Shown here piece by piece: positions 10,295-35,300 of a stretch of DNA of 53,697 nt. A program made the translations under genes and the position numbers. The stretch is taken from assembly GCA_963575745.1 (NCBI GenBank), contig CAUYUJ010000298.1, forward strand, positions 62,001 through 115,697, given 5' to 3'. Below the pieces are notes generated by a model, which saw nothing but the letters and a program-made list of their open reading frames with translations, ran no database searches and was not told the DNA's origin. The DNA comes from Prorocentrum cordatum. Lineage: Eukaryota. Numbering within the stretch: position 1 is the first letter of the stretch; each line of letters opens with the position of its first letter.

Positions 10295-10789
10295 GGCAAG
10301 TCCACGGGGCCGCGTCTGCCGCCGCCTGGCCGAGTAAAGGCAAGCAACTGACCATTTGGGCCGAACATCCACGGATGCAACATCATGCAAGCGGTTCCCG
10401 AGATCAAGCTGACAGATCTGATGGGTTGCCTCTCCCGAGTCGGACGTGGGAGGACGCAGCAAGCGACATTGTCTTAATCGTAGCCGCAAGGCTTCACGAA
10501 AAAACTCGGAGTCCTGAAACATGCCTCTCCAGGCTGACCGATCAAGACTCGCCGAGTGAGGGTGGAAGAGGTGAGGGAGGCAGGTGGTGATCTGAACCAG
10601 GAGTGAGAGAAGAAGAGAAAAACAAACGTATCCACCCTCATCTCTCTGGAGGTTGCGTGCCCCTGGTCTGGCACGCGCTGTCTCGTTAACGGCTAGGAGG
10701 TGTTGGCATACAAAACGTATCACAAGTAACACCTCGCTAGCTTCCCCATGCGCGTAGTGACCAGGCTCTCGCAGGCTCAGGGCGCGTCC

Positions 10790-13315: not shown

Positions 13316-13846
13316 GGCGATCACGGTGTCGCTCGGATCGCTGAGGTAGGGGCCAAGGTTCAGATGCGCCAGGGCATGAACGGCTATGTGCTTGATTCTG
13401 AAACCTACGTAGAAGACAGCACTGGAAAGTAACGGGAGCGCTCGGCAGACCGAGTCAAGACACCTACTAAGGAATGCGCTGCCCACAACCCAGGCACAGA
13501 ACGCTGCAGCGGGAGCACTGGCCTCATACCACTGGATACAGACTGGGATGGACGAGTGCGCGAAGCGCTTGAATATTTATGGTGCTGTTGTGTACATAAT
13601 TAAACTATGACCGAAGAGCGTTGGCGTACGTATGCGCTGTAGTATGCATTGCTGTGTGTACGTGTGTTGCTGCCTTGTTACCTGCATTGACGAATGGTTG
13701 TGTACGCATGATGCTGGTTTTGTCCTGGCCACCTCGAACAGAACGTGATATCAAGCTGGCCGCCATGATGATGCCTAATCGGCAAGGTCTCTTTTGTGCA
13801 GGCAACGCAGGCACATGGGCAATGGGCCTGAACTGGCCAATAAAAT

Positions 13847-14416
13847 TCACCATAGCATCATTTCACGATGCAGGCGAAAACACTCACGCACGAAATCGAT
13901 TGAAATGTCTCTCCCATGACGCGAGACTGCGTTGCAAAATGATATCGTATACGCTGCACTCTCGTGGAGGTGTTTGCCCCCACTCACTCTCCCACTGGCC
14001 TCCTCCCAGAACTTCGCCTTGTTTGGATGATCTCTTTTCCACTGGCGCAAGTTCATGGTGCGAATCAACAAACAGGCGGTTGGCATGTTGGTCAGCAAAT
14101 GCGTGCACTTCGCCATGTCATGGCCAAAACAACCCATCCAAGTTGTGATCACCTTCAGTGTACCACTGCTCGCTGCAATCAAGTCCACCATGCTCGGGTG
14201 AGAGAACATCCAAGAGTTAGCTGGCTGCTCGACAATGACTGATGAGGCAACGTAAGAGTTAGGCGCACACAGGTTGCCAGAAGATCGTTTGTGCACAGAC
14301 GAAGGTGAATAATGAACAAGGTGGTCCTGCCGAGACAGAGTAGCAATATAAGGGACGTGGATCGAGCTGAGGACCTCTCTGGCTGGATTGTTCTGGTCCA
14401 AACGTGCGCCTGCCAA
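13847..14416 (-). pseudogene. Degenerate C5 cytosine DNA methyltransferase-like remnant
   Basis: IVEQPANSWMF resembles motif VI (ENP/EQP); TWMGCFGHDMAKCTHLLTN resembles the motif VIII region; GKHLHESAAYTISFC resembles the C-terminal motif. No PC catalytic dipeptide where expected (LVHYSP|SSVHKRS). Confidence 0.5.
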
Positions 14417-14901
14417 CTGGTGGTGGCCACATCATCGTCGGCGTGCCGGGCTTCTGCTCCGACTCCGACAGTTGAGCTCATCGACGGCGCTCTGAGGCTG
14501 GGCAGCGCTCGGAAGCTGTTCGTGCAACTGGGGGCTGTTTCAACCTCAGGGGCCCAAGAACCAGGACCCAAGGGCCCTAGGCCCAATGGAAGCAGGAGGA
14601 CCCAAGGAACCAGCTAGCAAGACAGACAGGAGAAGAGGGAGGAAGGGAAATCATATGGAGTTGAAACAAACAAGGCTTAGAACAACCGAAAGACAAGAGA
14701 AGGAATGAAAACTAAGAGGAGGAAGCCTTTCACGAAGCGAGTCTATGGAGTGAGGAGGCAGTGGTTCAACACCGTGGTAATCCCCCACGGCACACACACG
14801 CCCGGCATGACCCCCAGCACGACCCCCGACACCCCCCCTCCCCAATACACACACGCGAACCCCTAGGCGCCAGAAATATTGATGGCCATGCGGCCGTGCT
14901 C

Positions 14902-16410
14902 TATCTTTCTTTCTCGGTGTTTCCTCTCTCTCTCACTCTCTTTCTCTCCCTCTCTGAGGCAGTCGATTCACATGCGCTTCGCCACCACACTCTCGGACGC
15001 CAAAGGCCTCCACGGTAGCATCTGAGACCCCCCCAAAGCCCCAAGAGGATTCCATATGATAAGCGAGATGCGCGTTGTGGGGTCCTGGCAACGATTTGCA
15101 ACATCCGCTTCGGGGTGTAACAAACGGCATGTGATTGCCAAACTGCGCTCGCAACCGGCCCCAAGAGAACCCTTCAACAATTTTTCCAGCACATTGGCGA
15201 CGATGTCGTGTCAAATCTGCCCCGAACCTCCTTTCTGGGCCCTCCCGGGCCCCCCCTGCCCGCCGCTCAAATCCCTCTCTCACCAACCCCCGAAAACTGT
15301 CGTTTCAGATCTCAATAATGCCGCTACGGAAGGAGCGTCAATGTCTAGTCCCGATTTGGGAGCTGAAACTCAAGATCAGGCGGCACTGGCGCGTGCTGGT
15401 GAACATCTTTGGGCCCACCTCGGTCCACCTACTTCATGCCATGCAAAAAGGCCCACGCAACGCTTTGGTGTAGGGAACATGTGGAAAAACCTATCCAGTC
15501 GCACAACACTTGCATGTCGGCTACATTGCGGCCCCAGTCGTATCTTTCTTTCTCGGTGTCACTCTCTTTCTCTCCCTCTCTGAGGCAGTCGATTCACATG
15601 CGCTTCGCTCAATTCCTCTACTCTAAGTCGTTCGATTGTTCTCATCGGCATTTTTCTACTAAGGCCTCCACGGTAGCATCTGAGACCCCCCCAAAGCCCC
15701 AAGAGGATTCCATATGATAAGCGAGATGCGCGTTGTGGGGTCCTGGCAACGATTTGCAACATTATGGCGACATTTTGCTTCGGGGTGTAACAAACGGCAT
15801 GTGATTGCCAAACTGCGCTCCAAAATAGCCTCGCAACGCCAACACCAATCCTCACGATCCCCAAGACGGCCCCCCTCTGCCCCCAACCACCCCCCAAGAC
15901 CCCAAACCCCCCAAGAAGCCCCGCGACCGCCCCACGACATTTCCGCGACATTTCCGCGACATTTCCGCGACATTTACGCGACAATTCCGCGACAATTCCG
16001 CGACAATTCCGCGACAATTGGTGACGATGTCGTGTCAAATCTGCCCCGAACCTCCTTTCTGGGCCCTCCCGGGCCCCCCCTGCCCGCCCTTGCTCAAATC
16101 CCTCTCTCACCAACCCCCGACCGCCCGAAACTGTCGTTTCAGATCTCAATAATGCCGCTACGGGCGCAAGGCAGCGTCAATCCAGTCAATAGTCCCGATT
16201 TGGGAGCTGCTCCTCCCACTTAGCTACCAGATCAGGCGGCACTGGCGCGTGCTGGTGAACATCTTTGGGCCCACCTGGTGGGATGGCAGAGCCTACTTCA
16301 TGCCATGCAAAAAGGAAAGCCACGCAACGCTTTGGTGTAGGGAACATGTGGAAAAACCTATCCAGTCGACATCTTGCATGTCGGCTACATTGCGTGAGTG
16401 CTCGGGGTCG
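14902..16410. repeat. Imperfect tandem duplication (about 14902-15540 and 15541-16410) covering the 3' end of the transposase-like gene
   Basis: Both copies begin TATCTTTCTTTCTCGGTGT and share long blocks (e.g. AAGGCCTCCACGGTAGCATCTGAGACCCC; CACGCAACGCTTTGGTGTAGGGAACATGTGG). The first copy has many small deletions. Confidence 0.9.
15935..16020 (+). repeat. 11-bp minisatellite (CGACAWTTCCG), about 8 copies
   Basis: Directly visible. Confidence 0.9.
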
Positions 16411-19400
16411 CTGTGTTGTGTGAGAGAACCTATCGAAATGTACTGTGACCGACCTGCCATCAGGGAGAACTTGCGTAACAGGAATGCCTGCGAAATCTGG
16501 CTGGAGCGCAACTACTGACGGCATTGGTCCAAGCAACATGGGCATGCCTGGTGCGCCTGGGAGCGCGCCTGGCCCGACGGCATCGGCATCCATGATGGCT
16601 GCAGGGTCAGCTAATACATCAGGTGCCGTGCCCTTCAAGAGAGAAACAAAAAACTCATTTTTCTTTGAAGTGACATCGGGGCCTAATTCCTCGACCACTG
16701 TCAAATCTTCTAGCTCCAAGAGGCATACGAAATAATGATGCGGGCACTTGCTGTACATCGCAGAGAGCCCCTTCAAAAACACCCCTGCATAGAAACATAG
16801 CGCAGCGAGCCGTGCTTTAGACCCCATGACCCATCGTGCATCAATCTGTCGGATGGTATCGAGCGTGATGGTCTCTTCCGCCCAAACACCCAACCCGAAC
16901 GAAGCAAGTTGACTAGCAAATCAATTCGGGAAGCCTTGCCCCATGGTTCACATCGCGTCGGCCCAGCAGCGATTGTGCCAACGCAAGAATACGAATGCCT
17001 CAACACGACACCCAATCCAGCGGCATTCAACCTGTGAGTTGGGGGTCTTTCGACAATCGGGCCGTTTGGCTGGTTTTGCTGGGGCCCCCGGGGCCAGATG
17101 GCTCTAGGGACTCCAGCAACACCAGCTAGAGGAAGATGAGGAGGGGGAGGAGGAGAAGGATGAGGAGCAGGAGTGGAGGGTTGAGGAGGAGGAGGAGGAG
17201 GAGGAGGAAGGAGGAGGAGGAGAGGAGGAGGAGAGGAGGAGGAGGAGGAGGAGGAAGGAGAAAGAACCATATGATCTTGTTCAGTCGAGTTTGAAACATA
17301 CCAACGAGAAGGAAGATGAGTAGAAGGATGAGGAGGACGAGGAGGAGGAGGATGGTGTCTCTGGCCACGCCATCGGAAAGGGGGGGCGGATGATAAAGTC
17401 TTGGGTGGGTTGTCTACTCCTCCCTGATCTCCACCTCCTGCGAATACTGCTGTCCCTCCTCATCCTCCCCATCATGTTTCTGTCGTTATTTTGGATCAAG
17501 CCATGTTGGATCAAGCTCCCCCCTGACATTATCTAACCCCCTGGGCACTTGTACAATGTCTCGCCGAACTCATCCAGCTCGGTTGATATAGCATTTGACT
17601 CCACCAAATCTTGTAACTCTCTGATGTTGACATGGGGAATATCCATGAAACTGGCAACGCCGCCTCTGTCCACGATTGCGTCCACTATGCTCTGCTTGCG
17701 GTTTGCTAGCGCGAGCACTCCAGCGTCTGCGAGCATGTCTTCTGGGGGCGGAGCGATTGCAGGTGGCGGCAAAGGGTGTGAGAGCTGGGGCTGGGCACGT
17801 TTCTTCAAGACAACTTCTTTCATGGACGCACAGCTGTGGCATGTAACCCAAGACATAATATCTGCAACTACGCGCTGAAAAACTACAGGGTCGCTCCACA
17901 CCTTGAGTGACACCTTGGTTGACCCATCCTGCTTAAAACTTTAAGCGCACATCACGACCGTCTTGGACAACATTCATACCGATAACCTCGACGACCCCTG
18001 ACTGAGGAGCAATGTGGCACTGCTGCACCACTGTGTGGTCCTCTGGGTTTGGATTGACCACGTACAAGAATCGATGACCGTGTATTTCGGGTGCGTGAGG
18101 TGGCGGCGGCACTACAGCCACAGTCTCCACAACGGTCCTCACATCTGGATCTCCTGCCTCTGGGTCTGGAAGAACAGCCAAATCGTACAAAACATTGGGC
18201 ACACTGAAAACAGAACCTGCTGGGAAACGACTCTTCAACCAACCTACTACGATAGACTGGTTTGACGTCAATGGAAGGGCCCGCTTGATACGCTTGTCGT
18301 TTCGCATGTGTTCCCATTTGTCGTGGGCATCGGCCTCAGGACCCGCGTCAGGATGCAACGTGTCTACTCCGAAGCCATACGTCATCGCATATCGTTCTGA
18401 GTAAGTTCGAGGCAGCTTGGCATCGGGGCACAGAGGTTTTAGAAGAATGTCCCAAATGTATTTAGACCACATCAAACGGAAAAACTTATCCCCCTCCTCG
18501 TCGTCGAGCATGCTGATTGCATGCTGATGTCGCAAGTATGCGCAGATAGTAGCTGGCTTGAATCCAGATGCTGGGCCAGAGATCGCACTATGGACCTGAG
18601 AATGCAATTGCTCCACAGGTGTCTCGTCTTGCGCCGAGGCTGCAATTTCTTGAAACTCCACAAAGAGCATCGGAAAATCTTGGAGACTGGTGGCACCATC
18701 TGGAGCATTGGAATACACCTCGCACATGTGGCGCAAGCTGCTCCCCTGTTGCAAAATCCTGAGGCTCCGGGAGTGCTGGCGGTTGGGGTCCTAAGGGAAG
18801 AGGAAGTGTAGTGGTAGGCGTGCACCCAACCCCCCAATACGATAACCTCCCAGCCCCTGGGCTATCATGCTATCTACTTTGCTGTAGAGGTATACTAGGC
18901 AATCAAATGGCGTTGTACCTACGGCCCCCGCACGCACGCGTCGCTCAAACCTTGAACGCCAGAGATACGTATCACAACAAGGGCTCGCATGCATATACTA
19001 CGACAAGGGCCCTGGGGGGATCTCCGAGGTCAGAACACAACTACATGCAAACGCACTTGGGGCTACAAAGCAATGTGGATACAAAGCAACACAAAGCACC
19101 TTATCTTCACGCTTCGCGCTGTATGCGTTATCTTCGCGCCCTCGCGCTGACCGCAGGAAGAAGCGACCTCCTGGGCCAGACCGTGGCGCGCGAGGCTAGC
19201 AAGTCAAACAGACGTGGGGTTACAGCTATCGGGAGCAGCCCGGGTAGAATGCGCATTCGAGATGTGAACGCTCTCACTACTACACCCCAATCCCTGCATC
19301 CAACCAGGGTCCCACCATATTTTTTTCTTTATTGCTCCCTCCCTCCTCGATGGCATCAAATTCCCTCACGCAGTCTCTTAGGCACCCCTTGCTCTGCGCT

Positions 19401-21899
19401 TCGGACGCCCCCATGAATTGACCAAACACGCCAGCCAGACGCTGAGGAAGATGCTCATGGTAAGACATCTTGCCAGTTACAGTAGCTATGAGCCTGACCT
19501 CCACTCTCTCCTCGAAACTTTTCACTGCCTGGAAAGGCCCAATGGGAGTACGGACTAAGAAGTCTTGCAATGCCTCGCTCTGGACGCTGGATAACCGTTC
19601 GCAGATCTTGCGGCATTCCCCGAGCGCAAGCAATCCAGACCACCTGGGAGCGTGCAGTTTGAGTGCTAGGGCAAATCGCAGGGGGGGAGGGGCGGGCGCA
19701 TCAAACCACCATTGAACTACGCCCACCTTGAAACTCGCGCGACTCTGTAGCATCATTCGCCAATGCGCGCAAGATCCGAGGTGGCCGCAGTTACGTGATG
19801 GTTCCGACTGTGCCCCCCCCCCCAACACGTGCTATGTACGAAAGTGTTGCGCCGAGGACCTCCCCATCCAAAAACAACGCGCTGGCTTTTTTTCATCGGC
19901 AGCTGCGATGCCTCTCTTGCGCTACCGATGTTTCCCAGCTCTGGTCGCCGCAGGCCTCTTATCTAAATCGACGTCTGCGTGGCAAGGGCACGACGACAAC
20001 CTCCTCGTTTCCTTGCCTACGGCAGACGAGACGAGCAAGATCACGAGGGTCAATCCGAACCACGTGGAATCGGAACACACCTTCCTGAGATCTCGAGCCT
20101 CTTGCTCTGCGAAGACCCCCTCGTAAACCTGATGCAGAACAAAAAAAAACAAAAACATCGTTCCTCCTCGCCCTCCTGCTTCTTACCACCTGCTTCCTTT
20201 GCTCCCTCTCGCCCCCCCGTGCACCTCCTTTCCCGCACGCCAGTCCTCCACTCCTTGCGTCGTTGTTTCGCCCAGGCGAGGTCTAACAACACGAATGTTT
20301 GTTGGGGCTCGAAGTGCAATCGAAGATGTGCATGCTAATGGACCCCTCTCCCCCTCGCGCCAATGACCCCACATGCAACTTTGGATAGGGTGTGCCTACC
20401 CCTCGTGCAGTGCCTGTTGGAAGTCAGTGCTGTCCCTTGGCTGGTAGGACTGAGAGTGAGAGAGAGGAGGAATGAGCACGACGGAGAGGGGGGAGAATTG
20501 AGAGAGATTGAGAGGACAAAGGAGGAGGAGAAATGAGACAGGAAGGCTTGCGTGCGCATTATAAAAGGACGCATGCCTGAATATCCCAGTACCTCACAAA
20601 GATTGGGTGCGCCAGCACCACCCAGCACAGCAAGTCCTCAACGAATTCCCATTTCCAATCTAAGAAGGATTGCTTGATTTTGTTCACGGTGTCTATCTCT
20701 ATCTTCGGAGCGCCTCTCATGCATCGGCCAACGAAACGAGTTCGGTATTCTGATTTGCCAAGCAAGCCCAATAGAGTATTGAGCGCAGCCTTCCAGTCAT
20801 CGTACTCGGGCTGCTTCACCACAGACTCCTTCAACGCATTGAAAAATATGTGTTTGTGTCCGATGTGCTCAATTGCGTCTGGAAGGAACTGCACGTCCCG
20901 GGAGGCAGGATCATTAAACGATATCTCTCCTGATTCTAACTTGTTGATCGCATCGAGGAGGCTTCCGTTCTCAGAATACAGGAGCGGCGCTGTGCATATC
21001 TTTCGTTCGGTACCCTGATCGGAGAGAAAACCAGAAACTTGGCACCTCCACTCTGGGAAGAGATCGCCGCTCTCGAGTGCCGCTGCGAACATTAACTTGC
21101 AAGTTTTGTTGACGGTTGCTGAGTCCCTGCTGCCCAGACAACTGACTGGTAGCATCCGCCGCTCCCACCGAAAACCGCCAAGCGGGTCGTCGCGCTTGAG
21201 GGGCTCCATCAAGTCCCGCTCCATGACAACCTCGTGGGCCATGAAGTAGTCGTAGCCTCCTTGGGGGCTGCTGTCGATGGTAATGTATCGAGAGATGCGC
21301 ACGTCACGCCCTTTCTCAAGTAGCTTCCTCCTCCACAGCATCAAGATAACATCTGATCGAACGAAGTTTCTGGCAGTAGTAACCCTGTGTGGAACGCGCA
21401 TCGCTCCCTCATCGATCTCCTTGGCGATCGTATCGGCCGCGGGACGGCCGAGGAGTGCCCTGGCACAGATCTTAAAAGCATCCTTGGCACGATCAGGGTT
21501 TCGAAGCAGGCGATGAAGTTGCATGCAAGCGATCATCGTGTCCACTGTATACTTCCCCCTGTCAGTCATGTACGATGCTTCGTCATCCTCATCATCATCC
21601 TCAACGGCTGGGGCGGCCTCTCCCTGGAGGCTTGCCTCCTCCTGCTCTGGCAACTCAGCTGCAACATCACCAGCGGCGCTCCCTGGTCCGAGACCTTCGG
21701 CAAGCCTGTGCTCTAGGTGAGCACCCGCCTTCGCAGGGCACTGCCTGTTGCACCCCGCAGCGCATATCCCTTGCCCCATGTCAGGAGCTCGCTTGATGCA
21801 CTGGGGATCGTGCCCGAAAGGATTGCTCAGATTTTCGCTCGAAGATTCCAGGCTGCATCCACGTGCGTACGAGGCCGCACGGCTACGGGGGTGGAACAC
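16186..21899 (-). pseudogene. Multi-exon DDE transposase-like gene (hAT/P/MULE-type RNase H fold), disrupted
   Basis: Predicted in-phase exons: ?-20577, 20128-19860, 19643-19346, 18790-17549, 17031-16186, with GC, GT, GA and GT donors and AG|G acceptors. Motifs YITIDSSPQ (D1), FLSDQGTE (D2), GHKH, CPCH, ETPVEQLHS (E) and a C-terminal C-x2-H-x2-C...H. TAG at 19922-19924; single-base frameshifts near 17935 and 16883. 5' end uncertain. Confidence 0.65.
17128..17352 (+). repeat. (GAG)n purine-rich tract in predicted transposase intron
   Basis: Directly visible. Confidence 0.9.
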
Positions 21900-21966
21900 C
21901 GGGCCCCAGGGACTAGAAAACTATGGGGCTATGCGCGGTAGCGGGGTGCAAGAGGGGTGCCCATCC

Positions 21967-22656
21967 CTAGCAGTTCGCCAGTGGAATGCTGGCCTGCAGC
22001 CCCAAGAATCTCACGTGGAACTCTGGCGCGACGATGACGGCGCCAGCAACCAGTTCGCGGGGAAGAACAGTGTGAGGCAATATCCACAGACGTCCCAAGC
22101 CTGCCCTAGCGCTGACGCCCTCCCCCGGCGACGACAACAGCTCGTGGACAGTTTGGCCAAGCATGTGCCCAGCAGGGTCTGGTGTGGCCATTACGCCAGT
22201 AAGTGCATGCCAAACGTGCCCAGAGATCTTCTGCACTCCAAGAATGTTCTGGCCATCGCGGATGAACCCATTCAGCGCATCTCCTGAAAGAGTTAGTGGC
22301 GGATTCAACATAAAAACATCACGCAGTTCGATAGCAATGTATTTCCGAGCGTTGGCAGAAGCTTTGGCATGAGGCTTGGCCCCACAAACCGAAAACCACG
22401 ATTGCCAAGCTCCTTGCTGACGTTGTTCTTCCTCCGTGGTGCCAACTGGCCTCTCTGGGCACAACGCCACGACGGCCTGGACAATGCGATCGCACTTGCG
22501 AGAAAAAGTCGGGTCGAAACGGTTAACGCCATCGTCAGGCTTCAGCGATACAAGCAAAATGTGGCCGTGCTTACGGCGCCGATCGGGGCGGCGAGGGGGG
22601 CCTCCACTGGGAGCGGCCCCGCTGCCGATCTGCGGTCTGACCGCAGGAGGAAGCAT
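21967..22656 (-). CDS. Possible first exon of the transposase-like gene, or a separate 229-aa hypothetical ORF
   Basis: ATG-initiated ORF immediately upstream on the same strand, protein-like composition; splice join not established. Confidence 0.35.
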   Translation of the reverse strand: MLPPAVRPQIGSGAAPSGGPPRRPDRRRKHGHILLVSLKPDDGVNRFDPTFSRKCDRIVQAVVALCPERPVGTTEEEQRQQGAWQSWFSVCGAKPHAKASANARKYIAIELRDVFMLNPPLTLSGDALNGFIRDGQNILGVQKISGHVWHALTGVMATPDPAGHMLGQTVHELLSSPGEGVSARAGLGRLWILPHTVLPRELVAGAVIVAPEFHVRFLGLQASIPLANC

Positions 22657-25600
22657 GCTTGCGCCAAAATGGCTGAGGCCCCGAGGAACGGCCAGGTCAG
22701 GGTGGAGGGTGGAGGGATAGAAAAGTCCGCTGACCCCATTCGGGGTTTCAAGGCTCGCGGTCCAGCTCCTGAGCAGGTCGTTTTTTATCTTTATTGCAAG
22801 GTCATGGGCCCCTGCCCCCGATATGCTTACGGGTCGTCGTGGGCAACTTCAAAAAAACATTGTCGGCATCATCCCCTGGAACAAACGTTGGAAGATCACT
22901 GCGATGATCTGAAATGTTTGCACAGTGCCTTTTGCCCCTGCCCGATGCGCCTCAAACGCGACAGCGCAGTGGGGGGTGGTCATCGCAGCCCCCCCTTAAC
23001 GTCAGAATTGAAGCGAACGAAAGCGCGCCCATCGTGCGGTGCTAAAGCTCGGTTAACGTATACGTGTTCGGCCGTGTTCATATTTTACACCAGATGTTGC
23101 GACCGTGCGAACGACGGATGGGGGCGGATCAGGCGACCCTAGGTTTTGGATTAGTTAGCGGGTTTCAATGGGGGTCATCCAACGTGCACGCGTTTAACCT
23201 TTGGTTTGGTGGATGTGTCTTGGTGTTTAAATTGCGCCGCACTTGAAGCTGCAAGGATATGGACGGGGTGTGAAGTCCACGTGCCCTTTCGGACGGTGTG
23301 TGGCCACCATCGATCATGCATTTTTTGAAAATTCAACATATTGTAACGCTTGTTTGGGGGGGAGAAATTTCGAACCATTCCAAGTTTTGCCTACCGATGA
23401 TGTTTGTCGGATTGTGGTCAGAAGTGGCTAAGTACTTCGAACCAAGTTCTGTTTCGTTAGCCTGCATGCGAACTTGCGATTTCGTCTTGCTGCCACCCCC
23501 GCTCTGGTGCCGTTTTGGCACGCGCAAAAAATTCGAGTCGACCTTCCGATGCCGCCAATCTAACGGCGGCCCGTCTGTGCCGCGCCGTCGATCCTCGACT
23601 TCTCCTCGACTTTGAGCGGACGCAGGGTCTAGTCGTGCACTCCCTTACTCGAAACCGCCGATCCCGCCCGTGTGCTTTTTAGCAGTAAAAGATACCCGAT
23701 CGAGCTGAGATCAAGATGGTCAGCAGAAATAAGATCAAATATCACGGGAATAAATACAAGATCTCAAACGAATTGAGGAATTCCGAGAACAAAATTTTCA
23801 ACCGACCAAATGTGAGCAAAAGGTCCGTCGAGATTTTTCTTGCCAACTAGCTCTCCAGCGCGCCAGAATTATTGGGCGCCGGCGGTAAACCGTCAACCTT
23901 CGTTACCGCCGGGGGACTCGTAGAGCTTCCTGACAACATATAATGTCGAAAAAAAATTACACTGAAAAAATAGTTTTTCAGCCCAAGCAATTTCAGACCT
24001 CTCCGATGTAACAGCCGAACGCCCCCGATGCTTCTGGATTCTCTTCTGTACGAGCTCTGTAGCTCTCCTACAGCCCGAGTTACGTGCGTAAATCGACAGC
24101 ACCTCTCAAGATTACTCGAATAATACGAATAGTTTCGCAAACCTAGCTCGAGTATCAGACCGAGTTCAGACCTCTGCATGCGACAGGCAGACGCGTCTGA
24201 TGTCTCTGAATCGATTCCTGTGATTACCAGCCCTGCAGCCCCCCCTACAGCCCGAGTTAAGTTCAGGAAACCGACAGCACCTCTCAGGATGACTCGAACA
24301 ATACGAATAGTTTCGCGGAGCTAGTTCGGGCAGCAGACAGAGTTCGAAGCTCTGGATTCGAAAGGCGGACGCACCTGATGTCTCCGAATCGATGCCAGTG
24401 ATTACCAGCCATGCAGCCCCCCCACAGCCCGAGTTGAGTGCAGAGAACCGACAGTATCTCTCAAGATGACTCGAATAATACGAATAGTTTTGCGGACCTA
24501 GCTCGGGCAGCACACCGAGTTCAGAGCTCTGGATTCAACAGACAACGGCCACTGATGATTCTGAATCAGATTCTGTACGTATCAGCTCTGAAGCTGTCCT
24601 GTAGCTCGAGTTAAATACAGAAAGCCGAGAGCGCCTGTCAAGATGACCCGAATACTACGAATAGGTTTGCGGACCTAGCTCGGCTAGCAGACCAAGTTCA
24701 GACCTCTGGGTTCAACAGGCGAACGCGGCTGATCATTCTGACACCGATTAGCTGTGCTTACCAGCTCTGTAGCTGTCCTAAAGCTCGAGTTACCTTGAGA
24801 AAACCGGCAGCGCGTGACAAGATGACCCGAAACGGCCGATCCCGCCTGGACGCTTTTTGGCAGTAAAACGTACCCGATCGAGCTGAGATCAAGATGGCGA
24901 GCGGGAATAAGATCGAATATCACGGGGAAAAATAACAGAGGTCTAACGAATTGTTGAATTTCGAGAACGAAATTTTCAACCGAGCAAAAGTTGTCAAAAA
25001 TGGGCGCCGGCGGTAAACCGTCAACCTTCGTTACCGCCGGGGGAATCGTAGAGCTTCCTGACAACATATAATGTCGAAAAAAATGCTGAAAAAAATATTT
25101 CTTTCAGCCCAAGCAATTTCAGACCTCTCCGATGTAACAGCCCAACGCCCCCGATGCTTCTGGATTGTCTTCTGTACGAGCTCTGTAGCTCTCCTACCGC
25201 CCGATTTACGCGCGTAAATCGACAGCACCTCTCAAGATGACTCGAACAATACGAATAGTTTCGCAAACCTAGCTCGAGTATCAGACCGAGTTCAGACCTC
25301 TCCATGCGACAGGCGGACGCGTCTGATGTCTCTGAATCGATTCCTGTGATTAACAGCCCTGCAGCCCCCCTACAGCCCGAGTTAAGTGCAGGAAACCGAA
25401 GCACCTCTGAGGATGACTCGAACAATACGAAAAGCTTCCTGGCAAAAGTCGTCAAAACGTCCGTCGAGATTTTCCTTGCCAACTAGCTCTCCAGCGCCCC
25501 GGAACTGGGAGCCGGCGGTAAAGCTTATGACAGTTATAATGTTGAAACAAAATTGCAGAGACCCACTAGTTTTTCAGCCCAAGCGATTTCAGACCTCTCG

Positions 25601-26631: not shown

Positions 26632-26708
26632 AAGTTAATATGTCAATGCTCGAGGTAAAAATCTGCTTTCTCAAAATGAATTGTCAAACTGGCGCCGGCG
26701 GTGAATCG

Positions 26709-29700
26709 TCAACCAGGTTTGTTTGTTTGGACTCGCGTTCCCAGCTGAGTGCAGCTGGGCGAGGACCGGTCCCGCAGAAGCACACGGGCAGCGCTGAGCA
26801 GCGCTCCGGCTGCCGACAATTCACATTCTGTGACTGTAGCTCCTTCGAGGAGCCACGCGGCCTCGGCCACATCCCTCCAAACGAGGGGCACGGCACTAGA
26901 AACAGCAAACTCATGCCCAGCAGGGAAGGGGCCCACGGTTCTCGCGGAAGCGATGCCTATCTCACTGGGATTGCACTGAGTATTGATTAAGCCGATCTGA
27001 AGCCAGAAACCACATCCTGATCCTTGCTGGTCAACCCCGCCATCAAAGCCTCCCCTGATAGCGAACGGTAAGAGATAAGTTTCGAATGGATATAGATAAC
27101 AATGAGTTCTGTAGAATGTGCGGCCACATCTGGCCTCATGCGTCAATTCATCCGCTCGTGTATTGTCCTCCCTGAATTCGTGTCTCCATATCTCACGTCC
27201 CAAGGCAGCAGGCCTCAGATTGAAACACGCAGCGAGCTCAAAGGTACAATCAATCATGGCAGCTGTCCTCTTGCAGTAGCCACGATTCTCACATCTCCAT
27301 TTCCCCTGTAGCCAGGAGCAGATAAGTAATGAGTCACCCTTGAACTCAGCAGCAAAACCCTCTGAGGATATATCCCACACAGTCGCACGTTCCTGGATCA
27401 TAGCATAACGTATTGCAAGCTTGGCGGACTCTTTGGGGTCGTACTTGGGGTGCAGAGGGTTGGTCGCGATGTCGACCGCCTCAGCGTCGGCCTTCTCTCG
27501 AGCCTCAGGGGAGCCTCGAGGTCCATTAGGAGAGCCCTTCCAAGACACCACAAAGTAATCATAGACCTTAGTTTTGTTGTATTGTGTAAGGAGTTGCTTC
27601 CATACCTCCAAGAACTGAACCCAATCGCCCCGTACCGACTCCCACCACTTTTCCCCAAAGAACTGAATGTAGGGGAACTGCCAAGACCGACCGCCCACAG
27701 ACACAGGGCCTCCACGAAGCCGCTTGCCCGAACTAGATAAGGCCCTGTTGCCGCGTTGTCGTAGAACCTCTGTTATTGTGTCGCGAGCCGTGACCCAGCC
27801 AACATTGTACATCATAAGCGCACGTCGGGAGTCTCGAAAGGCCCTCCTCCCCTTTGAGACGGCAAGTGGCTCGTCTCTGAGAGTGTGGGCAGCTCCCTCT
27901 CCAGAGGGCATCGGCTGTGAGCGGGCAATGGAACAGGCGACCTGCGAGCAAAGATCCTCCAGCCGCCTCTCCATATCCGTAATCCTCCCCTCCACCTCCA
28001 TCACAGTCGCTGCAGGTACATCCTCCCCCCGTCCATCCGCAAAGCGAACACGTTTAGCACGTTGAGTCGTTGATCCCTCCACCTCAACCTCCGTCCTTGC
28101 CGCCCTGTCCTCCTCCAAAGATAGTAAATATTGCCTCGTGGAGCGCATCATGCCCCAGCTCTTCCAACACAGCATCTGCACAGCCGACGGGAAACCCCCA
28201 TCGCAGAAGATTGTCCTGACTCGTGTCAGTGCAGCTGGCCGCCATACCTCCCACCCCACATCTCCTGGCTTCCTCCTCCCTGACATTCTCAGAAGACACA
28301 TACCCTCGAACGCATGGATAACCCTCACACACTCACTGTCAATCGTGATGGCCTCTGCTGCATATAAAAGACGGCTCTGCACAGTCGATTGATATCGACG
28401 AAACTTCTTCACCAGAGGCAGCGCCCTGCACGTAAAATACTGCACCTGCGCAAAGAATGCCCTTCGGGCCTGCTGGACGCGCTCCTGCACATCCGTGTGG
28501 ATAGAAGTGAAACTTCTGGGAATCTGATACCCCAGCACATTCAAACTCTCAACATGCTTGAAAGGAACAATCCGCGAGCCAATCTGAACCGTGACCGTAT
28601 CAGTGTACTGAGTACCACACACCATCATCTCTAGACTCTCCTCCTTCCACTCCATCCCCCAATCCCTGAGAGCAGTAGTGAAGGCAGTGGCCGCTACCTG
28701 CGCCTCCGATGCTGACTTGGCGGCCAGAAAAATATTGTCAGCCCAGAGAGCATGATTCCAACGTGCATACCGACAATGATCATCATGGCATGGCATCTCG
28801 ACTCCGACACCGCGCTGATCCAGGCGAGCAATCACATCACGCCACATAGCAATAGTGACAATAGTAAACGCGATAGGTGATTCGGTACCCCCAGTACGGA
28901 GCGACCTATCCCACTGCACATTGGGGATTGTCACTCCTTCAAACAGCACCGTGCATGAAGTAGATGAGAGAGGCTCCAATAACGCATACTGTAACCGTGC
29001 ACTGATCCCAAGGGCCGTCATCGCTCTCGAGACTGTCGGCAACGTCACAGCATCGAACGCCCGCTCGATGTCACAGCTGAGGAGCCACGCCGTTTGATCT
29101 CGCCCCCATGTGGAAGCATGTTGTGCAATACATTTCATGGCCGATGAAATCTCCCAGCAACGTCGTCCGCTGGTAAAACCGTAAACCGCCATATCACTCA
29201 TGAAGGGTTCCACACATCGTTCCAGTAAAATCGTCACACACGCGAGATACCACTTGGCCAAGGTATTTCCGACGAGCAGGTTCCTTGTTTGTCGCAATGT
29301 TTCCAGTTTGCTCGTTGTCGGCATAAGTGTTAGGTATACTTCCTGCCATTCCCTTGGCGTCGGGCGAAGCCCGTTGAATATATCAGAGAAAACCTTACCA
29401 ATAGAACGCACTGACCTCCACGAAAGAGACTTGAGAAGTTCAACCGAGATGCCGTCGGGCCCACAGGCCCGTCCTGTTCGGAGCCTGCTCCGCGCCTGCA
29501 GGATAGTAGAGTATGCAATCGTAAGTGTGTTGTCCGAAGAGGCTGTTGATTGAGATGCATGGCGACGCAGTGTGGACACAAGCTCCCGATTGCGGGCTCT
29601 GGAGTCATCACGAGTCATACTCTGCACAGCATATCGCTCCACCTCCTCCGCCCACAGTTCCCTGTCCTCCGTCATCATAGTCGTAGGTCCCATATCCCCT

Positions 29701-30986
29701 CCCCCAGTGTCCGTCACCCTCAACTCCGTCACACGTGTCCTCCTCCCCTTCCTAGATGGTAGCGCCTCCCACTCCACATTCCGTCGGCGATATTCCCGCG
29801 CAAGCGGTCTGATGCGACGTCGAAGGCCCCGAGCCAACGCTCTGTCCTTCCTAGCACGTGCCTCTCTGAGTTGTACCTCCAGCTCGGCATGCTGAGGAGT
29901 CCTACTCGGCGGGAGCCCTCGAGAGTACCTGGGGGCCCTCACCGTGAGGAGCGGTAACGCATGTCCAGCAATCGTTTCAGCAAGACGTTGTGGGGGCACC
30001 GTCGGGATCTGGACGTCCGCCAGGACCTGAAATTGGGCCTCCTCCCGATACGATTGGAACTCTTTGTGGCTTGTGTGGTGGCTAGGGGGGCCTTGATATT
30101 TCGTGACCTGAGGGTTCTGCATATGGAACTCGGCGTAGACACAGGCATGATCCGAGAAGTTGGTAGTCGGGGTCTCTGGGATCCAATCCGTTCGGCATTC
30201 AACCAAGTCACCCTCCCAGGATTGTGGGACCATGAGATAGTCAAGCACTTTTGGCGCAATAGTCTTCGCCCCAGACTTGCGTCGAGCATTATTCGCACGA
30301 TGCACGAAAGTCGGCTGCCGAGAGTACGGCGAGCCAAGAGAATTGACTGCCAGCAAGCGCATCCGACACAGCCACTCCTGCAGCTGAGATCGCCACATGT
30401 CCTCCTCCCACCGTCTATCCTCCGTATCATTCCCATATCCCCTCCCGTCGAGAATCTGCACAGCACCTCCAGTCACCGTGCCTCCTGAACAGGTGATGTC
30501 GGGCGCAAGCTCAACATTAAAATCCCCTGCAATCACAAGCTCACATGTGTATCTGCATTCCTCCTTCCACCTCCGATAAGTTGTTTCGATTGTTTTCAGC
30601 ATCTCAAAAGCCACCTCCAATGAACGATTCTCCGATCTGTTCGGAAAATACGCAGAGACAAGAAAGATACACGGATGACGCAAGCACACAATAGCAAGAC
30701 GAGCATGATTACTCCAAGAGCGAACTATGTTGTGACAAGACTTCCCCCTCAAAGCTATGGAAGCCTTCCTGTCACTTGAATAAACTAGGTGCCAGCCAAG
30801 CAGCTGAATTGAATTGGACGGTAAGTGTTCACACTCCTGTAAACAGAACACTTCACAGCCGCGAGAAAGAAGTGCCCTCATGCAAGCAAATCCCCGATCT
30901 GCTGTAGCCCCTTGTTTCATAAGATTCTGGGTGCCTAGCCTATGCTGGGCTGTGGGGCCACCAGCCCGACTGGCACCTCTGCACCG
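26709..30986 (-). CDS. ORF2: AP-type endonuclease, reverse transcriptase and RNase H-like domain
   Basis: APE motifs GTQN, CLQE, AGDFN, LDY, SDH; RT motifs GPDG, YGF, DIERAFD, TGGTESP, WADN, LG; RNase H motifs GDS, HxxRExNxxAD, FDGG, TxxExE. First ATG at 30920 but the frame is open from 30986. Confidence 0.93.
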   Translation of the reverse strand, partial: RCRGASRAGGPTAQHRLGTQNLMKQGATADRGFACMRALLSRGCEVFCLQECEHLPSNSIQLLGWHLVYSSDRKASIALRGKSCHNIVRSWSNHARLAIVCLRHPCIFLVSAYFPNRSENRSLEVAFEMLKTIETTYRRWKEECRYTCELVIAGDFNVELAPDITCSGGTVTGGAVQILDGRGYGNDTEDRRWEEDMWRSQLQEWLCRMRLLAVNSLGSPYSRQPTFVHRANNARRKSGAKTIAPKVLDYLMVPQSWEGDLVECRTDWIPETPTTNFSDHACVYAEFHMQNPQVTKYQGPPSHHTSHKEFQSYREEAQFQVLADVQIPTVPPQRLAETIAGHALPLLTVRAPRYSRGLPPSRTPQHAELEVQLREARARKDRALARGLRRRIRPLAREYRRRNVEWEALPSRKGRRTRVTELRVTDTGGGDMGPTTMMTEDRELWAEEVERYAVQSMTRDDSRARNRELVSTLRRHASQSTASSDNTLTIAYSTILQARSRLRTGRACGPDGISVELLKSLSWRSVRSIGKVFSDIFNGLRPTPREWQEVYLTLMPTTSKLETLRQTRNLLVGNTLAKWYLACVTILLERCVEPFMSDMAVYGFTSGRRCWEISSAMKCIAQHASTWGRDQTAWLLSCDIERAFDAVTLPTVSRAMTALGISARLQYALLEPLSSTSCTVLFEGVTIPNVQWDRSLRTGGTESPIAFTIVTIAMWRDVIARLDQRGVGVEMPCHDDHCRYARWNHALWADNIFLAAKSASEAQVAATAFTTALRDWGMEWKEESLEMMVCGTQYTDTVTVQIGSRIVPFKHVESLNVLGYQIPRSFTSIHTDVQERVQQARRAFFAQVQYFTCRALPLVKKFRRYQSTVQSRLLYAAEAITIDSECVRVIHAFEGMCLLRMSGRRKPGDVGWEVWRPAALTRVRTIFCDGGFPSAVQMLCWKSWGMMRSTRQYLLSLEEDRAARTEVEVEGSTTQRAKRVRFADGRGEDVPAATVMEVEGRITDMERRLEDLCSQVACSIARSQPMPSGEGAAHTLRDEPLAVSKGRRAFRDSRRALMMYNVGWVTARDTITEVLRQRGNRALSSSGKRLRGGPVSVGGRSWQFPYIQFFGEKWWESVRGDWVQFLEVWKQLLTQYNKTKVYDYFVVSWKGSPNGPRGSPEAREKADAEAVDIATNPLHPKYDPKESAKLAIRYAMIQERATVWDISSEGFAAEFKGDSLLICSWLQGKWRCENRGYCKRTAAMIDCTFELAACFNLRPAALGREIWRHEFREDNTRADELTHEARCGRTFYRTHCYLYPFETYLLPFAIRGGFDGGVDQQGSGCGFWLQIGLINTQCNPSEIGIASARTVGPFPAGHEFAVSSAVPLVWRDVAEAAWLLEGATVTECELSAAGALLSAARVLLRDRSSPSCTQLGTRVQTNKPG

Positions 30987-30989
30987 TCA
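30930..30989 (-). promoter_or_regulatory. Candidate stop-codon readthrough cassette (UGA-CGG, 9-nt spacer, stem-loop)
   Basis: Minus strand: TGA CGGTGCAGA GGTGCC-AGTC-GGGCTG-GTGGCCCCA-CAGCCC-AGCATA-GGCT-A-GGCACC; ORF1 and ORF2 are in the same frame. Confidence 0.6.
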
Positions 30990-32303
30990 CACCCTGCCGG
31001 CAAGACTCGTAACAAATGTGTCGTATGTAGTCGTCACACCGCTTCGCATAAGTACACCCTCCCAGATCTCGCGGTCCACTGTCCACCCCGTATTGATACG
31101 AAAGGATGCCAGTTCCACGGGTCGATGCTGAGGGTCCTGCGGCTTGGTCCACATTGTGCTCCGTCCGTTGGGTCCCGATCCTGTCTCCCCCCTGATCTCC
31201 ATAGCCTCACTGTTGGTACACTCGCGGTATGTCCCATAGAAGCGTCCCACAGCCCCGATATGATCACGTTTCCAAGGTGGGGCCTCTATGCGTACGCGGA
31301 CCCGACTGGGTCGTTGTAACATGCCCTGGAACATGCTGTCATAATCTGGAGGTGACCTCGAAACCTGAGCCGCATTCCTTTGGGGATTCGGAGTTAAAGC
31401 ATCATCAAAAGCACGCTTCACGTTGTATAATCTCGAAGAGTCGGTTCCTACAATGAATTTGATTTTGATCGTACTCAACATCATTCTACTTCCATTCATA
31501 CGTAATGTGCCCTCGTAGTCGATCCTAGCTTCATCCTCTGCTGCGATGGCCGTCTTCAAATTAGTGATGAATTGTGCAGCGTCCGTGTCTCTCATCATAC
31601 TGGCCGAACGTGTAACCGCTGTCCCATTCCAGTCTGTCCAGCCTGTGAGCTCCACATAGCTGGGACTGAAACTGGAGGGTCCTGAGAGTCCTGGTGGGCC
31701 CCCTCCGTAGGAAGGTGCCGTAGTCGAGGCTGCACCTGATATCACACTGGGGTTCTTCTTGAGATCCTGCATCTGTCGTTCCAAATTGTTCATCCTGATG
31801 TCGGAGGCCTCCTGACGCTTCGAGATACTCTGAATATCGGCCCTGGTTTCGACGTTTTCTTGTTGCCTAACTTTGCTCTCAAGCACGTTGAGCTCCGCGA
31901 AGGCCTTGAACCAGGATGGGGCCTCGTCCGAGACCACACTGAGTTTCTTTCGCTTCTCCTCGAGTTCTCCCAAGAGTGCCTCGTGAGGACCGTTGACACG
32001 ATGTTTGACATTTCGTTGGGCGTCGTCGCTAACACCCTGCATACCCTGACGCTCCCCAGCACCTTCAGGGACAACAGCCGCTTGGGCCGCCGCCTGTTGT
32101 GCCTCCGTGGGCATACCTGGGGGTCCCCCTAGAGCACCTTGTGGAGCTGGGCCTCTAGGAACAACAGGAGCGCCTCCAGATCCTTGACCTCCAGGACTGA
32201 CCTGACCTATTGGAACCCCTCCCGCACGCCCTCCGTTGGTTGTAGCTCCCGCCACAGCTGCGTTGGAATAAGTCTGCATCATATTCATGAGTCCTGTATT
32301 CAT
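30987..32303 (-). CDS. ORF1 (gag-like/RNA-binding) of the LINE
   Basis: G/P/Q-rich N-terminus, heptad-like coiled coil (IQSISKRQEASDIRMNNLERQMQDLKK), then a globular region. First ATG at 32303, but the frame is open to the element 5' end. Confidence 0.8.
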   Translation of the reverse strand: MNTGLMNMMQTYSNAAVAGATTNGGRAGGVPIGQVSPGGQGSGGAPVVPRGPAPQGALGGPPGMPTEAQQAAAQAAVVPEGAGERQGMQGVSDDAQRNVKHRVNGPHEALLGELEEKRKKLSVVSDEAPSWFKAFAELNVLESKVRQQENVETRADIQSISKRQEASDIRMNNLERQMQDLKKNPSVISGAASTTAPSYGGGPPGLSGPSSFSPSYVELTGWTDWNGTAVTRSASMMRDTDAAQFITNLKTAIAAEDEARIDYEGTLRMNGSRMMLSTIKIKFIVGTDSSRLYNVKRAFDDALTPNPQRNAAQVSRSPPDYDSMFQGMLQRPSRVRVRIEAPPWKRDHIGAVGRFYGTYRECTNSEAMEIRGETGSGPNGRSTMWTKPQDPQHRPVELASFRINTGWTVDREIWEGVLMRSGVTTTYDTFVTSLAGRV

Positions 32304-35300
32304 ATTCACAAATGAAGGTGGGACAACACAATGGCTATCACTATCTGGTGTGGAGTCGGCAGTATTCAATCTCCCGTCCAATGGAAGGTCACGTACAATC
32401 TGCTCGGTATCCTGAACTTGCCTCTTCCGAGATGCCCTCTCAACAGCAGAATCTGGTCTCTGTCCGTAATCCTGTGAGTACTGCAAATATGGTACAGTCG
32501 GGGAAATATCACTGAAAAGTCGTGCCCGTCCGTCTTTGCACACACGACAAACAAAACAACAATTACAGCACACAAAGCAGGCGGCCTGGCTTGCCTGGAA
32601 GATGCCGTACTCGTCGATGGCAGCGATGGCCGCCGCGCCGCTTCCCCGCGGCGCCGACACCCCCTGAGCTCCTGTGGGATCCAGGAGCCCTAGAGCCGAG
32701 ATGTCTTGAGCCGGGAACCTCGTAGAGCTCCTTGTATCCGTGAGAAAGCTCAGGATCAAAGCAAGAGCTTTTGGGAGCTTTTCTACAAAAACTTCAAGTT
32801 TAGATTTTTCAGAGTCAACATGAAGTCGGTTCCTCCAAGTGAACTGGCACTAAAAATGGCTCTAGAGGACTGAGCTGCTCAGGAAACAAAGTTTATTTAT
32901 ATGTCAATGCTCGGAGTAAAAATCTGCTTTCTCAAAATGAATTGTCAAATATCCTTCAATTTTTTGCAACATCACCCAAAAGTTACCACTTTGTCCTTTC
33001 TGGCCGGGTCGACCAACTAGCTCCACCCCGCGCCGGAATTCCTCTAGCTCATCGATGCCGAAGAGCTCTACGAGGTATATCTTTCAAAAAATCGCAAAAC
33101 CATCCAAAAGTTGTCCCATTCTCCGCCTCAGCCGGGTGCGCCAACTGGCGCCGGCGGTGAACGGTCAACCTGGTCACCGCCGGGAACCTCGTAGAGCTCC
33201 TAGCACGCGTAAGAGTGCTCAGCATCAAAAGAGAGGGCTTCTGGAAGCATTTCTCAAAAAAAGAGAAAACCTGATTTTTTTATGTCGACATGAAGTTGGT
33301 TGCGCCAAGTGTTTTGATAGTAAAAGTGAATCTAGAGAGCTCACATTAAGACGGAGAGGCCCTCATAGTCGTTCACAGGTGCGAAAAATCTGCTTTCTCA
33401 AAATAAATGGTCAAATATCTTTGAAATATTTGCAAAACCACCCAAAAGTTATCACACTGGGCGCCGGCGGTAAACCGTCAACCTTTCTTACCGCCGGGGG
33501 ACTCGTAGAGCTTCCTGAGAATATATAAGGTTTCCAGACCTCTCGGATGCAACAGCCGAACGCCCCCGATACTTCTGGATTGTCTTCTGTACGAGCTCTC
33601 TAGCTCTCCTACAGCCCGAGTTACGTGCGCAAATTGACAGCACCTCTCATGATGACTCGAACAATACGAAGAGTTTGGCAAACATAGCTCGAGTATCAGA
33701 CCGAGGTCAGACCTCTGCATGCGACAGGCGGACGTGTCTGATGTCTCTGAATCGATTCCTGTGATTAACAGCCCTGCAGCCCCCCCTATAGCCTCAGTTA
33801 AGTGCAGAAAACCGACAGCATCTCTCAGGATTCGAACAACACGAATAGTTTTACGGACCTAGTTCGGGCAGCAGACAGAGTTCGGAGCTCTGGATTCGAA
33901 AGGCGGACGCGCCTGATGTCTCCGGATCGATTCCAGTCTCGACCAGCCACGCAGCCCCCCCACAGTCCGAGTTAAGTGCAGAGAACCGACAGCATCTCTC
34001 CAGATGACTCGAACAATACAAATAGTTTCGGGATTCTAGATCGGGCAGCAGACCGAGTTCAGAGCTCTGGATTCAACAGACAACGGCCACTGATAAATCT
34101 GAACCAGATCCTGTACGTATGAGCTCTTTAGCTGTCCTGTAGCTCGAGTTAAGTACAGAAAACCGAGAGCGTCTGTCAAGATGACTCGAATAATACGAAT
34201 AGGTTTGCGCACCTAGCTCGGCTAGCAGACCGATTTCAGACTTCTGGATTCAACACGCGAACGCGCCTGATCATTCTGAGTGGATTAGCTGTGCTTACCA
34301 GCTCTGTAGCTGTCCTGAAGCTCGAGTTATCTTGAGAAAACCGACACCGCGTGACAAGATGACTCGAAATGGCCGATCCCGCCGAAGCGCTTTTTGGCAG
34401 TAAAAGGTACCCGATCGAGCTGAGATCAAGATGGCGAGCGGGAATAAGATCGAATATCACGGAAAGAAATATTAGAGCTCTAACGAATTGTTGAATTTCA
34501 AGCACAAAATTTTCAACCGACCAAAAGTCAGCAAAAGGTCGGTCGATACTTTTCTTGCCAACTGGGCGCCGGTAAATGTCAACCTTTGTTACCGCCGGGG
34601 ACTCGTAGAGCTTCCTGACAACATGTAATGTCGAAAAAAAAACACAGAAAAAATAGTTTTCAGCCCAAGCAGACCTCTCGGATGCAACAGCCGAACGCCC
34701 CCGATGCTTCTGGATTGTCTTCTGCACGAGCTCTGTAGCTCTCTTACAGCCCGAGTTACGTGCGTCAATCGAGAGCACCCATTGGCAAACCTCGCTCGAG
34801 TATCAGACCGAGTTCAGACCTCTGCATACGCGTCTGATATCAGCTAAGTGCAGGAAACCCACAGCACCTCTCAGATTATATTGAACAATACAATAGTTTT
34901 ACGGACTTAGTTCGGACAGCAGACAGAGTTCGAAGCTCTGGATTCGACAGACAGACGCGCCTGATGTCTCCGAATCGATTCCAGTGATTACCAGCCATGC
35001 AGCCCCCCTACAGCCCAAGTTTAGTGAAGAGAACCGACAGCATATCTCAGGATGACTCGAACAATACGAATAGTTTCGCGATAGATCGGGCAGCAGACCA
35101 AGTTCAGAGCTCTGGATTCGACAGACAAACGCAACTGATAATTCTGAATCAGATTCTGCACGTATTGGCTCTGGAGCTGTCCTCAGGCTCGAGTTGAGAA
35201 CAGAAACTGAGAGCGTCTGTTAAGATGAATCGAGTAATACGAATAGGTTTACGGACCTAGCTCGGCTAGCAGACCGAGTTCAGACGTCTTGCTTCAACAG

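Follow-up and report, generated by a model that had tools for sequence, protein, structure and literature searches.

A conserved in-frame stop codon between the two open reading frames of a dinoflagellate LINE clade suggests expression of ORF2 by stop-codon readthrough

How the second open reading frame (ORF2) of a long interspersed nuclear element (LINE) is expressed from a two-gene mRNA has been settled for only a few elements, in all of them through reinitiation of translation. Human L1 and silkworm SART1, both bicistronic LINEs with an apurinic/apyrimidinic endonuclease (APE), make their two proteins from one mRNA by this route; L1 has a 63-nucleotide (nt) spacer followed by an ORF2 AUG, and SART1 has an overlapping UAAUG and requires a structure 3' of the ORF1 stop codon (PMC5972666, PMC10275272). 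For the Group 3 LINEs of Paramecium tetraurelia, Guerin et al. (2017) proposed, from consensus sequences, the read-through of an in-frame stop located between ORF1 and ORF2 (PMC5405496). Outside LINEs, readthrough is established in viruses and in long terminal repeat (LTR) elements. Type II viral signals (alphavirus nsP3-nsP4, Virgaviridae replicase, coltivirus VP9) combine UGA-CGG with a predicted stem-loop 7-12 nt downstream, the stem of alphaviruses and Virgaviridae being placed at 8-12 nt (Firth et al. 2011, PMC3159437). In LTR elements with an in-frame gag-pol stop, often UGA-C (murine leukaemia virus, MuLV; Tj1, Tosmo1-3 and Tcry1 of fission yeast; Tca2 of Candida), the stop parts an abundant RNA-packaging protein from an enzyme polyprotein and thereby sets their ratio (PMC10085805, PMC2194720, PMC5009743). 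Here we analyse a 53,697-nt stretch of the genome of the dinoflagellate Prorocentrum cordatum (assembly GCA_963575745.1, contig CAUYUJ010000298.1, positions 62,001 to 115,697; hereafter the window), which carries on its minus strand a full-length LINE whose ORF2 is likely made as a fusion with ORF1 through programmed stop-codon readthrough.

The window element is an APE-type non-LTR retrotransposon, with an (AAAC)n tail, differing 5' and 3' ends, dispersed copies and a 5'-truncated copy (L032). Its 407-nt 5' leader is free of ATG and open in the ORF1 frame, in which the first ATG of the element also lies. As in Paramecium Group 3, it is an LINE with APE and reverse transcriptase (RT) of an alveolate host, with ORF1 and ORF2 in one frame and a stop codon between them. 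The Paramecium ORF2, however, has ~900 amino acids (aa) and ends in a CX2HX7HX4H zinc finger, whereas the ORF2s of the P. cordatum clade have 1240-1500 aa and a permuted RNase H; because of the zinc finger end and the shorter ORF2 described there, we set the window element apart from Group 3 on these features (PMC5405496). The text consulted for Group 3 describes neither an RNA signal nor a test (PMC5405496). The original prediction of readthrough at this locus had called an ORF1-ORF2 fusion unusual for LINEs; unusual it is, with the Paramecium proposal as a precedent, and the concept as such is not new (PMC5405496). The window LINE shares with L1 and SART1 the bicistronic APE-type organization, and with SART1 the target-specific insertion, but it lacks an ORF2 AUG such as theirs and its frame is continuous (PMC5972666, PMC10275272).

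The junction reads GTG-TGA-CGG-TGC-AGA on the minus strand, with the TGA at 30989-30987. Read from stop to stop, the frame ahead of it covers 620 codons (32849-30987) and the one behind it 1425 aa (30986-26709); both belong to a single frame and adjoin with no further stop between them, so that the original prediction was exact in this respect. It had also placed the segment RLGTQNL, with a conserved Asn of the first APE motif, upstream of the first ATG of ORF2, and this was likewise confirmed: the segment spans codons 15-21 after the stop, the Asn falls in the column of the motif-I Asn when compared with 18 related APE domains, and the ATG is codon 23. The profile built from these 18 lineages matches ExoIII/APE1, R1Bm and L1 endonuclease structures, with the Asn placed at the SWN motif of ExoIII/APE1; Pfam Exo_endo_phos was found in 13 of them. 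The motif-I Asn is important for APE catalysis, and a protein begun at the first ATG of ORF2 would be deprived both of this residue and of the first beta strand of the endonuclease, as judged from the alignment.

The TGA of a single locus might simply be a nonsense mutation of a single-ORF element that was passively copied, which the conservation across copies, a check proposed with the prediction, speaks against. A DNA search for close copies (best 40 of 178 candidates scored, all 98-100% identical) provided 30 copies that we fetched, and TGA is present in all 30, one of them with a 1-nt deletion just upstream. Two other young families keep the stop in 26 of 27 and 31 of 31 fetched loci, some of which were fetched twice; the single exception had been chosen for its long open frame. 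A protein search of the genome listed at least 151 matches, the best 150 of 2242 candidates being scored. From searches with divergent endonucleases and with ORF1 alone, we hand-picked 31 divergent lineages, represented by one row each, with a median pairwise identity of 25% over 105 endonuclease residues. Left out were near-duplicates, one locus with a non-alignable Asn (L263), frameshifted or truncated loci (L032, L080, L083, L175, L186, L246, L253, L266, L267, L269, L283, L289, L294), single copies with a sense codon at the stop site (L088, L107, L108, L109, L181, L187), and two probably decayed loci (L075, L081) that have no stop located 9-27 codons ahead of the Asn and preceded by ORF1 in frame. 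All 31 lineages have one in-frame stop between ORF1 and ORF2 (30 TGA, 1 TAG), with an additional upstream stop in the decayed rows L061 and L118. The distance from this stop to the Asn ranges from 9 to 27 codons, with 14 different spacer lengths. A set anchored on ORF1, whose selection is independent of ORF2 (60 rows, ten loci being fetched twice), agrees: the ORF1 end is visible in 55 rows (48 TGA, 7 TAG), and 52 of these 55 continue in frame into motif I, the other three being single copies frameshifted in the spacer, unlike their sisters. The six single copies with a sense codon (GGA twice, AGA twice, TGG, CGA) might be seen as remnants of a single-ORF element, but each codon is one base away from TGA and limited to one copy, and no lineage among those examined has a fixed sense codon at this site. 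The in-frame stop is, therefore, a real and well-conserved feature, common to young, intact, high-copy families and to the divergent lineages, and we reject a nonsense mutation as a practically negligible alternative.

Several ORF2s of 1240-1500 aa terminate at TGA and contain none internally, which indicates that TGA is a true stop in this host. Its decoding as selenocysteine would agree with the preponderance of TGA at the junction, with a hairpin 3' of the UGA and with the two tRNA-Sec matches above the Rfam cut-off found in the genome. However, one high-copy family (L298-L304) has TAG-AGG at the junction, 9 codons ahead of the Asn; the site belongs to an unconserved linker, with Gly, Trp and Arg as variants and never Cys; and neither the window element nor eight other loci have an Rfam match to the selenocysteine insertion sequence (SECIS), although a non-canonical SECIS would escape this search. 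There is also little room for such an element, several families having a poly-A-like tail ~30-50 nt past ORF2 and the window family having no 3' untranslated region. Selenocysteine is, in consequence, very improbable. As a separate observation, the first two spacer codons of the TAG family (Arg-Cys) are the same as in the window family and in L093.

Removal of the stop in the RNA, by A-to-G editing to UGG or by splicing of a small intron, seems hardly more credible. Copy L109 does have TGG at the site, and editing would likewise require a conserved frame and a helix nearby. Yet edited or spliced RNA would serve as template for new copies, so that TGG or spliced copies should spread; none was seen to do so, the six sense variants being single copies with several different codons. 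Moreover, the predicted helix excludes the stop, and in contigs from four public runs, which are of DNA or of unspecified kind and may include the source sample, the codon at 30987-30989 is unaltered and the sequence runs across it without a joint.

The spacer between the stop and the endonuclease provided further clues. In 23 of the 31 lineages it has no in-frame ATG ahead of strand 1, and seven lineages, including that of the window, also lack CTG, GTG, TTG, ACG and ATH (H = A, C or T). Its 423 codons contain no in-frame stop, a value which is zero partly by definition, versus 5 and 16 stops in the other two frames. Among 18 non-overlapping sister pairs, the spacer differences at codon positions 1, 2 and 3 were 34/31/64 (p=1e-4), compared with 51/35/90 in the endonuclease, and codons 5-8 had a clear third-position excess (7/10/26). 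In five sister pairs the spacer could be aligned cleanly, with a single gap in each pair, and four of these gaps measured 3, 3, 3 and 12 nt; ten other pairs were too divergent for gap placement. This substitution pattern indicates that the spacer is constrained as coding sequence from the fifth codon onwards, the first four codons being uninformative.

These data also bear on termination-reinitiation, in which ribosomes would end ORF1 at the TGA and, just past it, begin anew on a non-AUG codon, or on an AUG in the lineages that have one, to make a separate ORF2 protein, with the hairpin holding the ribosome as in SART1. It is the described route of L1 and SART1, the latter requiring a structure downstream of the stop (PMC5972666, PMC10275272), and it would be favoured by the spacer ATG of eight lineages, by the near-cognate codon of most others and by the first four codons, which have no coding signature. 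Nevertheless, reinitiation requires neither a common frame nor a stop-free spacer, and both hold over all the spacer lengths. No start codon is conserved in position; an ATG stands next to the stop, in the manner of the SART1-type stop-start, only in L079; and a start overlapping the stop as AUGA would fall into another frame, with A as the base before the stop in only 2 of 26 lineages. Reinitiation would also leave the preference for the leakiest stop unexplained, and we regard it as unlikely, although it is the foremost alternative. A separate ORF2 mRNA, arising near the junction through an internal promoter or through trans-splicing of the spliced leader, could be imagined since dinoflagellate mRNAs are trans-spliced (PMC3229502) and the Tca2 junction contains a minor promoter (PMC2194720). 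Its first AUG, however, would lie past the motif-I Asn in the 23 lineages without a spacer ATG, with loss of endonuclease strand 1, and the conservation of the frame would have no explanation, which makes such an mRNA highly improbable.

Regarding the choice of the stop, the ORF1 stop hardly varies, whereas the own stops of ORF2 in nine families were 5 TGA, 3 TAG and 1 TAA. The loci for dinoflagellate viral nucleoproteins (DVNP; n=18, mostly one paralogue group) had 15 TAG, 1 TAA and 2 TGA. The genome, of 4.1 Gb, has 29 DVNP matches among 48 candidates, as befits a dinoflagellate host. The reported share of TGA among stops is 68-90% in several dinoflagellates, Alexandrium having 73-80% and Heterocapsa, for which the sample was small, 90% (PMC3229502). 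The TGA preference at the junction can thus be taken as supporting, not decisive, evidence of readthrough.

Readthrough is the reading that we prefer because it is the only one that explains together the continuous frame, the single stop, the coding-like spacer and the lack of a conserved start. The fusion claimed in the original prediction is, therefore, supported as the best explanation of the conserved in-frame stop, and we consider it likely. Ribosomes would start at the first ATG (32303) and mostly end at the TGA, yielding abundant ORF1 protein. A few percent of them would insert a near-cognate amino acid at the UGA (Trp, Arg or Cys, those inserted in UGA readthrough) and carry on in frame, via the short Arg/Ser/Gly-rich spacer, into the endonuclease, RT and RNase H, to produce an ORF1-ORF2 fusion of ~1860 aa and ~205 kDa. 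The C after the stop and the hairpin opening 7-12 nt downstream may raise the leak in the subclade of the window element, and other lineages may rely on other signals. The stop would be retained since it sets a high ORF1:ORF2 ratio, like the gag:pol stops of LTR elements, which the window junction also resembles in its UGA-C. Those elements carry a protease and an integrase (PMC10085805, PMC2194720, PMC5009743); no protease motif was noted in the window LINE, so that the fusion would likely stay uncleaved.

The hairpin deserves separate consideration. For the 62 nt at 30925-30986, the fold of lowest energy (-25.9 kcal/mol) is the predicted stem at 30977-30930. A position-aware score for a helix opening 7-13 nt past the stop gave p=0.049 against 40 shuffles and a rank of 0.003 against other windows of the same element. 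Averaged over 26 lineages, from -240 to +300, the most stable helix starts at +5 to +10 (-16.4 versus -8.5 +/- 1.8 kcal/mol). In a sister subclade of 10 sequences a 6-bp core is kept, 5 of 11 tested pairs are invariant and there is one A-U/G-C double change. Inspection of the folds by eye showed that the window element and L172-L174 have in common a 9-bp basal stem with the same 3' arm and one G-C to C-G change, although MAFFT did not align the two stems. The window family has no shared variants in +1 to +180 after the stop. We also observed that the 13th base past the stop is a purine in all 26 lineages (19 G, 7 A), which is possibly the start of the stem. The resemblance to type II viral signals, claimed in the original prediction as an alphavirus-like context, holds for the window family, which has UGA followed by CGG (one of the two type II triplets, CUA and CGG), a predicted stem-loop at the matching distance and the polymerase behind the stop. 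In contrast with the viral signals (PMC3159437), the context varies across the P. cordatum clade, and the hairpin is local, occurs patchily and has weak covariation. Of the CGG and the stem 9 nt on, the CGG was correctly predicted, and the stem, itself a prediction, is only modestly above chance.

A number of observations weigh against readthrough or against its proposed signals. All 31 lineages come from one genome. They are, moreover, related, and 30 TGA out of 31 has a binomial P=0.003 if TGA makes up 77% of stops and 0.17 if it makes up 90%. Codons 1-4 of the spacer show no third-position excess (21/12/21, p=0.23), so that a start within them is still compatible with that test, and a database relative (P0020) has 57 open codons ahead of the Asn. 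Among the systems invoked for comparison, the gag-UGA-pol junction of Candida Tca2 failed to direct readthrough when placed in a reporter in yeast (PMC2194720). The stop is followed by C in 18 lineages, by G in 7, by T in 4 and by A in 2; hence, 13 of the 31 lack a C, and CGG comes next in only 4. As for the helix, the 96 nt of the original prediction favoured a different fold (z -0.92), and five folding windows gave z from -0.75 to -1.68. With composition controlled, the hairpin is weak clade-wide, reaching p<=0.1 in 9 of 31 lineages, while each of four control windows had 1-3 such lineages (mean z -0.40; p=0.087 in a t-test), and strongest in the subclade of the window element; the TAG family has no helix near the stop. 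The covariation expected for the stem did not exceed shuffles: the one double-change pair of the 10-sequence subclade was reached by 431 of 500. Finally, four families pooled had 5 shared variants near the stop versus 9.4 expected, which is not a significant depletion (p=0.09). On the basis of these folds, the hairpin is a plausible stimulator of readthrough in part of the clade, neither proven nor universal. We are more hesitant, and incline slightly towards doubt, about a broader picture in which this would be an old, still very active clade that makes its whole enzyme only as an uncleaved fusion of ORF1, endonuclease, RT and permuted RNase H, through readthrough stimulated in the manner of viruses by a hairpin that overlaps endonuclease strand 1 and was rebuilt with a differing sequence from lineage to lineage.

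Table 1. Coordinates of the features of the LINE and of its insertion site, numbered from the first letter of the window.
Feature	Position	Strand	Basis or remark
Full-length LINE copy	26717..32710	minus	~6.0 kb; ends from comparison with 12 other copies
ORF1, 438 aa from the first ATG of the element	30990..32303	minus	ATG list; homology across 18 lineages
Lone in-frame TGA between ORF1 and ORF2	30987..30989	minus	predicted readthrough codon
CGG codon	30984..30986	minus	immediately 3' of the TGA
Two-tier stem-loop (predicted)	30930..30977	minus	opens 9 nt past the stop; 3' arm codes the start of endonuclease strand 1
20-codon spacer ahead of the first endonuclease strand	30927..30986	minus	without ATG or common near-cognate start
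Conserved APE motif-I Asn	30924..30926	minus	codon 21 after the stop
First in-frame ATG of ORF2	30918..30920	minus	codon 23 after the stop, two codons beyond the Asn
APE endonuclease domain	30084..30963	minus	approximate limits
Reverse transcriptase core	28521..29222	minus	Pfam RVT_1, E 1.1e-12; active-site motif WADN
RNase H-like domain, halves in swapped order	26790..27350	minus	approximate limits
(AAAC)n 3' tail	26717..26728	minus	ORF2 without its own stop ahead of the tail
Insertion target, 5' half	32711..32730	minus	motif of the surrounding repeat array
Insertion target, 3' half	26695..26716	minus	provides the TGA that ends ORF2 in the window copy

The two proteins have several further traits (Table 1). 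ORF1 had no Pfam hit and only a weak Atlas lead to Baculo_FP_2nd (score 0.78); it is homologous across lineages over 250 residues. Its C-terminal 250 aa are predicted to fold into a domain resembling an RNA recognition motif (RRM) and a small alpha/beta domain (predicted local distance difference test, pLDDT, 89.8), although the model matches RRM structures at Z 5-6 only. The usual RT active-site motif is YADD; at this site (window ~28740, minus strand) 11 of 14 lineages have WADN or YADN, and the remaining three have no motif in the frame examined. The RNase H is circularly permuted, with motifs 3 and 4 (GDS, RE.N..AD) ahead of motifs 1 and 2 (DGG, T..E) in all 10 aligned lineages and with all four acidic residues retained. 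Positions 62-123 of Pfam RVT_3 match its first half and positions 8-62 the end of a relative. When the C-terminal model was searched against known structures, no whole domain matched it clearly; the model overlays only half of RNase H1 (4e19; Z 3.7, root-mean-square deviation 2.1 over 70). The last 240 residues of ORF2 in 10 lineages contain the RNase H motifs and no conserved Cys/His finger. A full-text literature search of incomplete coverage found no published report of a permuted RNase H in LINEs.

The ORF2 of the window family runs through the (AAAC)n tail and ends at a stop supplied by the flank (26709-26728; also L226-L235 and L109), so that its C-terminus varies between copies. Insertion is sequence-specific: the repeat array around the element contains a palindromic motif, and the copies are found at a single position within it. 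The half-motifs of the target occur 16 and 12 times within the window, and L172 and L174 end at the same target as the window element. Another locus (L229, G000:C510) matches the element and both flanks at 99%, so that it is not a new insertion but a second haplotype or a segmental duplicate. At the other extremity, the 5' bases of the element (32704-32710) seem to match the spliced leader of dinoflagellates at its 3' end, which may point to trans-splicing of the element RNA. Elsewhere in the window, a 13-kb insert of higher GC (~9850-23150) lies inside a 177-bp repeat array. It contains several minus-strand frames of 280-580 aa, with no Pfam match in the seven frames scanned, and is possibly a DNA transposon.

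Further searches added little. Scanning metagenomes with an RT alignment retrieved 9 loci. The two close relatives among them (L236, L237) do not extend as far as the junction, and the longer ones resemble other LINE types; no relatives were found in viral and prokaryote collections. Searching the P. cordatum genome itself with two distant relatives as queries revealed no further lineage. ORF1 had no match of near or greater length in the protein database and, hence, no natural fusion, which is weak evidence. The full-text literature search, with its incomplete coverage, found no paper on readthrough in a dinoflagellate LINE or on measured readthrough in any LINE.

A practical consequence of the arrangement found here is that gene callers clip the first strand of the endonuclease, several database relatives beginning inside the domain. 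The 31 natural junction variants, with TGA or TAG, with or without a hairpin and with all four next bases, form a ready panel for reporter assays. A covalent ORF1-ORF2 fusion would alter the assembly of the LINE particle. If the broader picture outlined above is true, this clade would be the best-sampled case of natural programmed readthrough in a LINE and a probe of the leakiness of translation termination in dinoflagellates.

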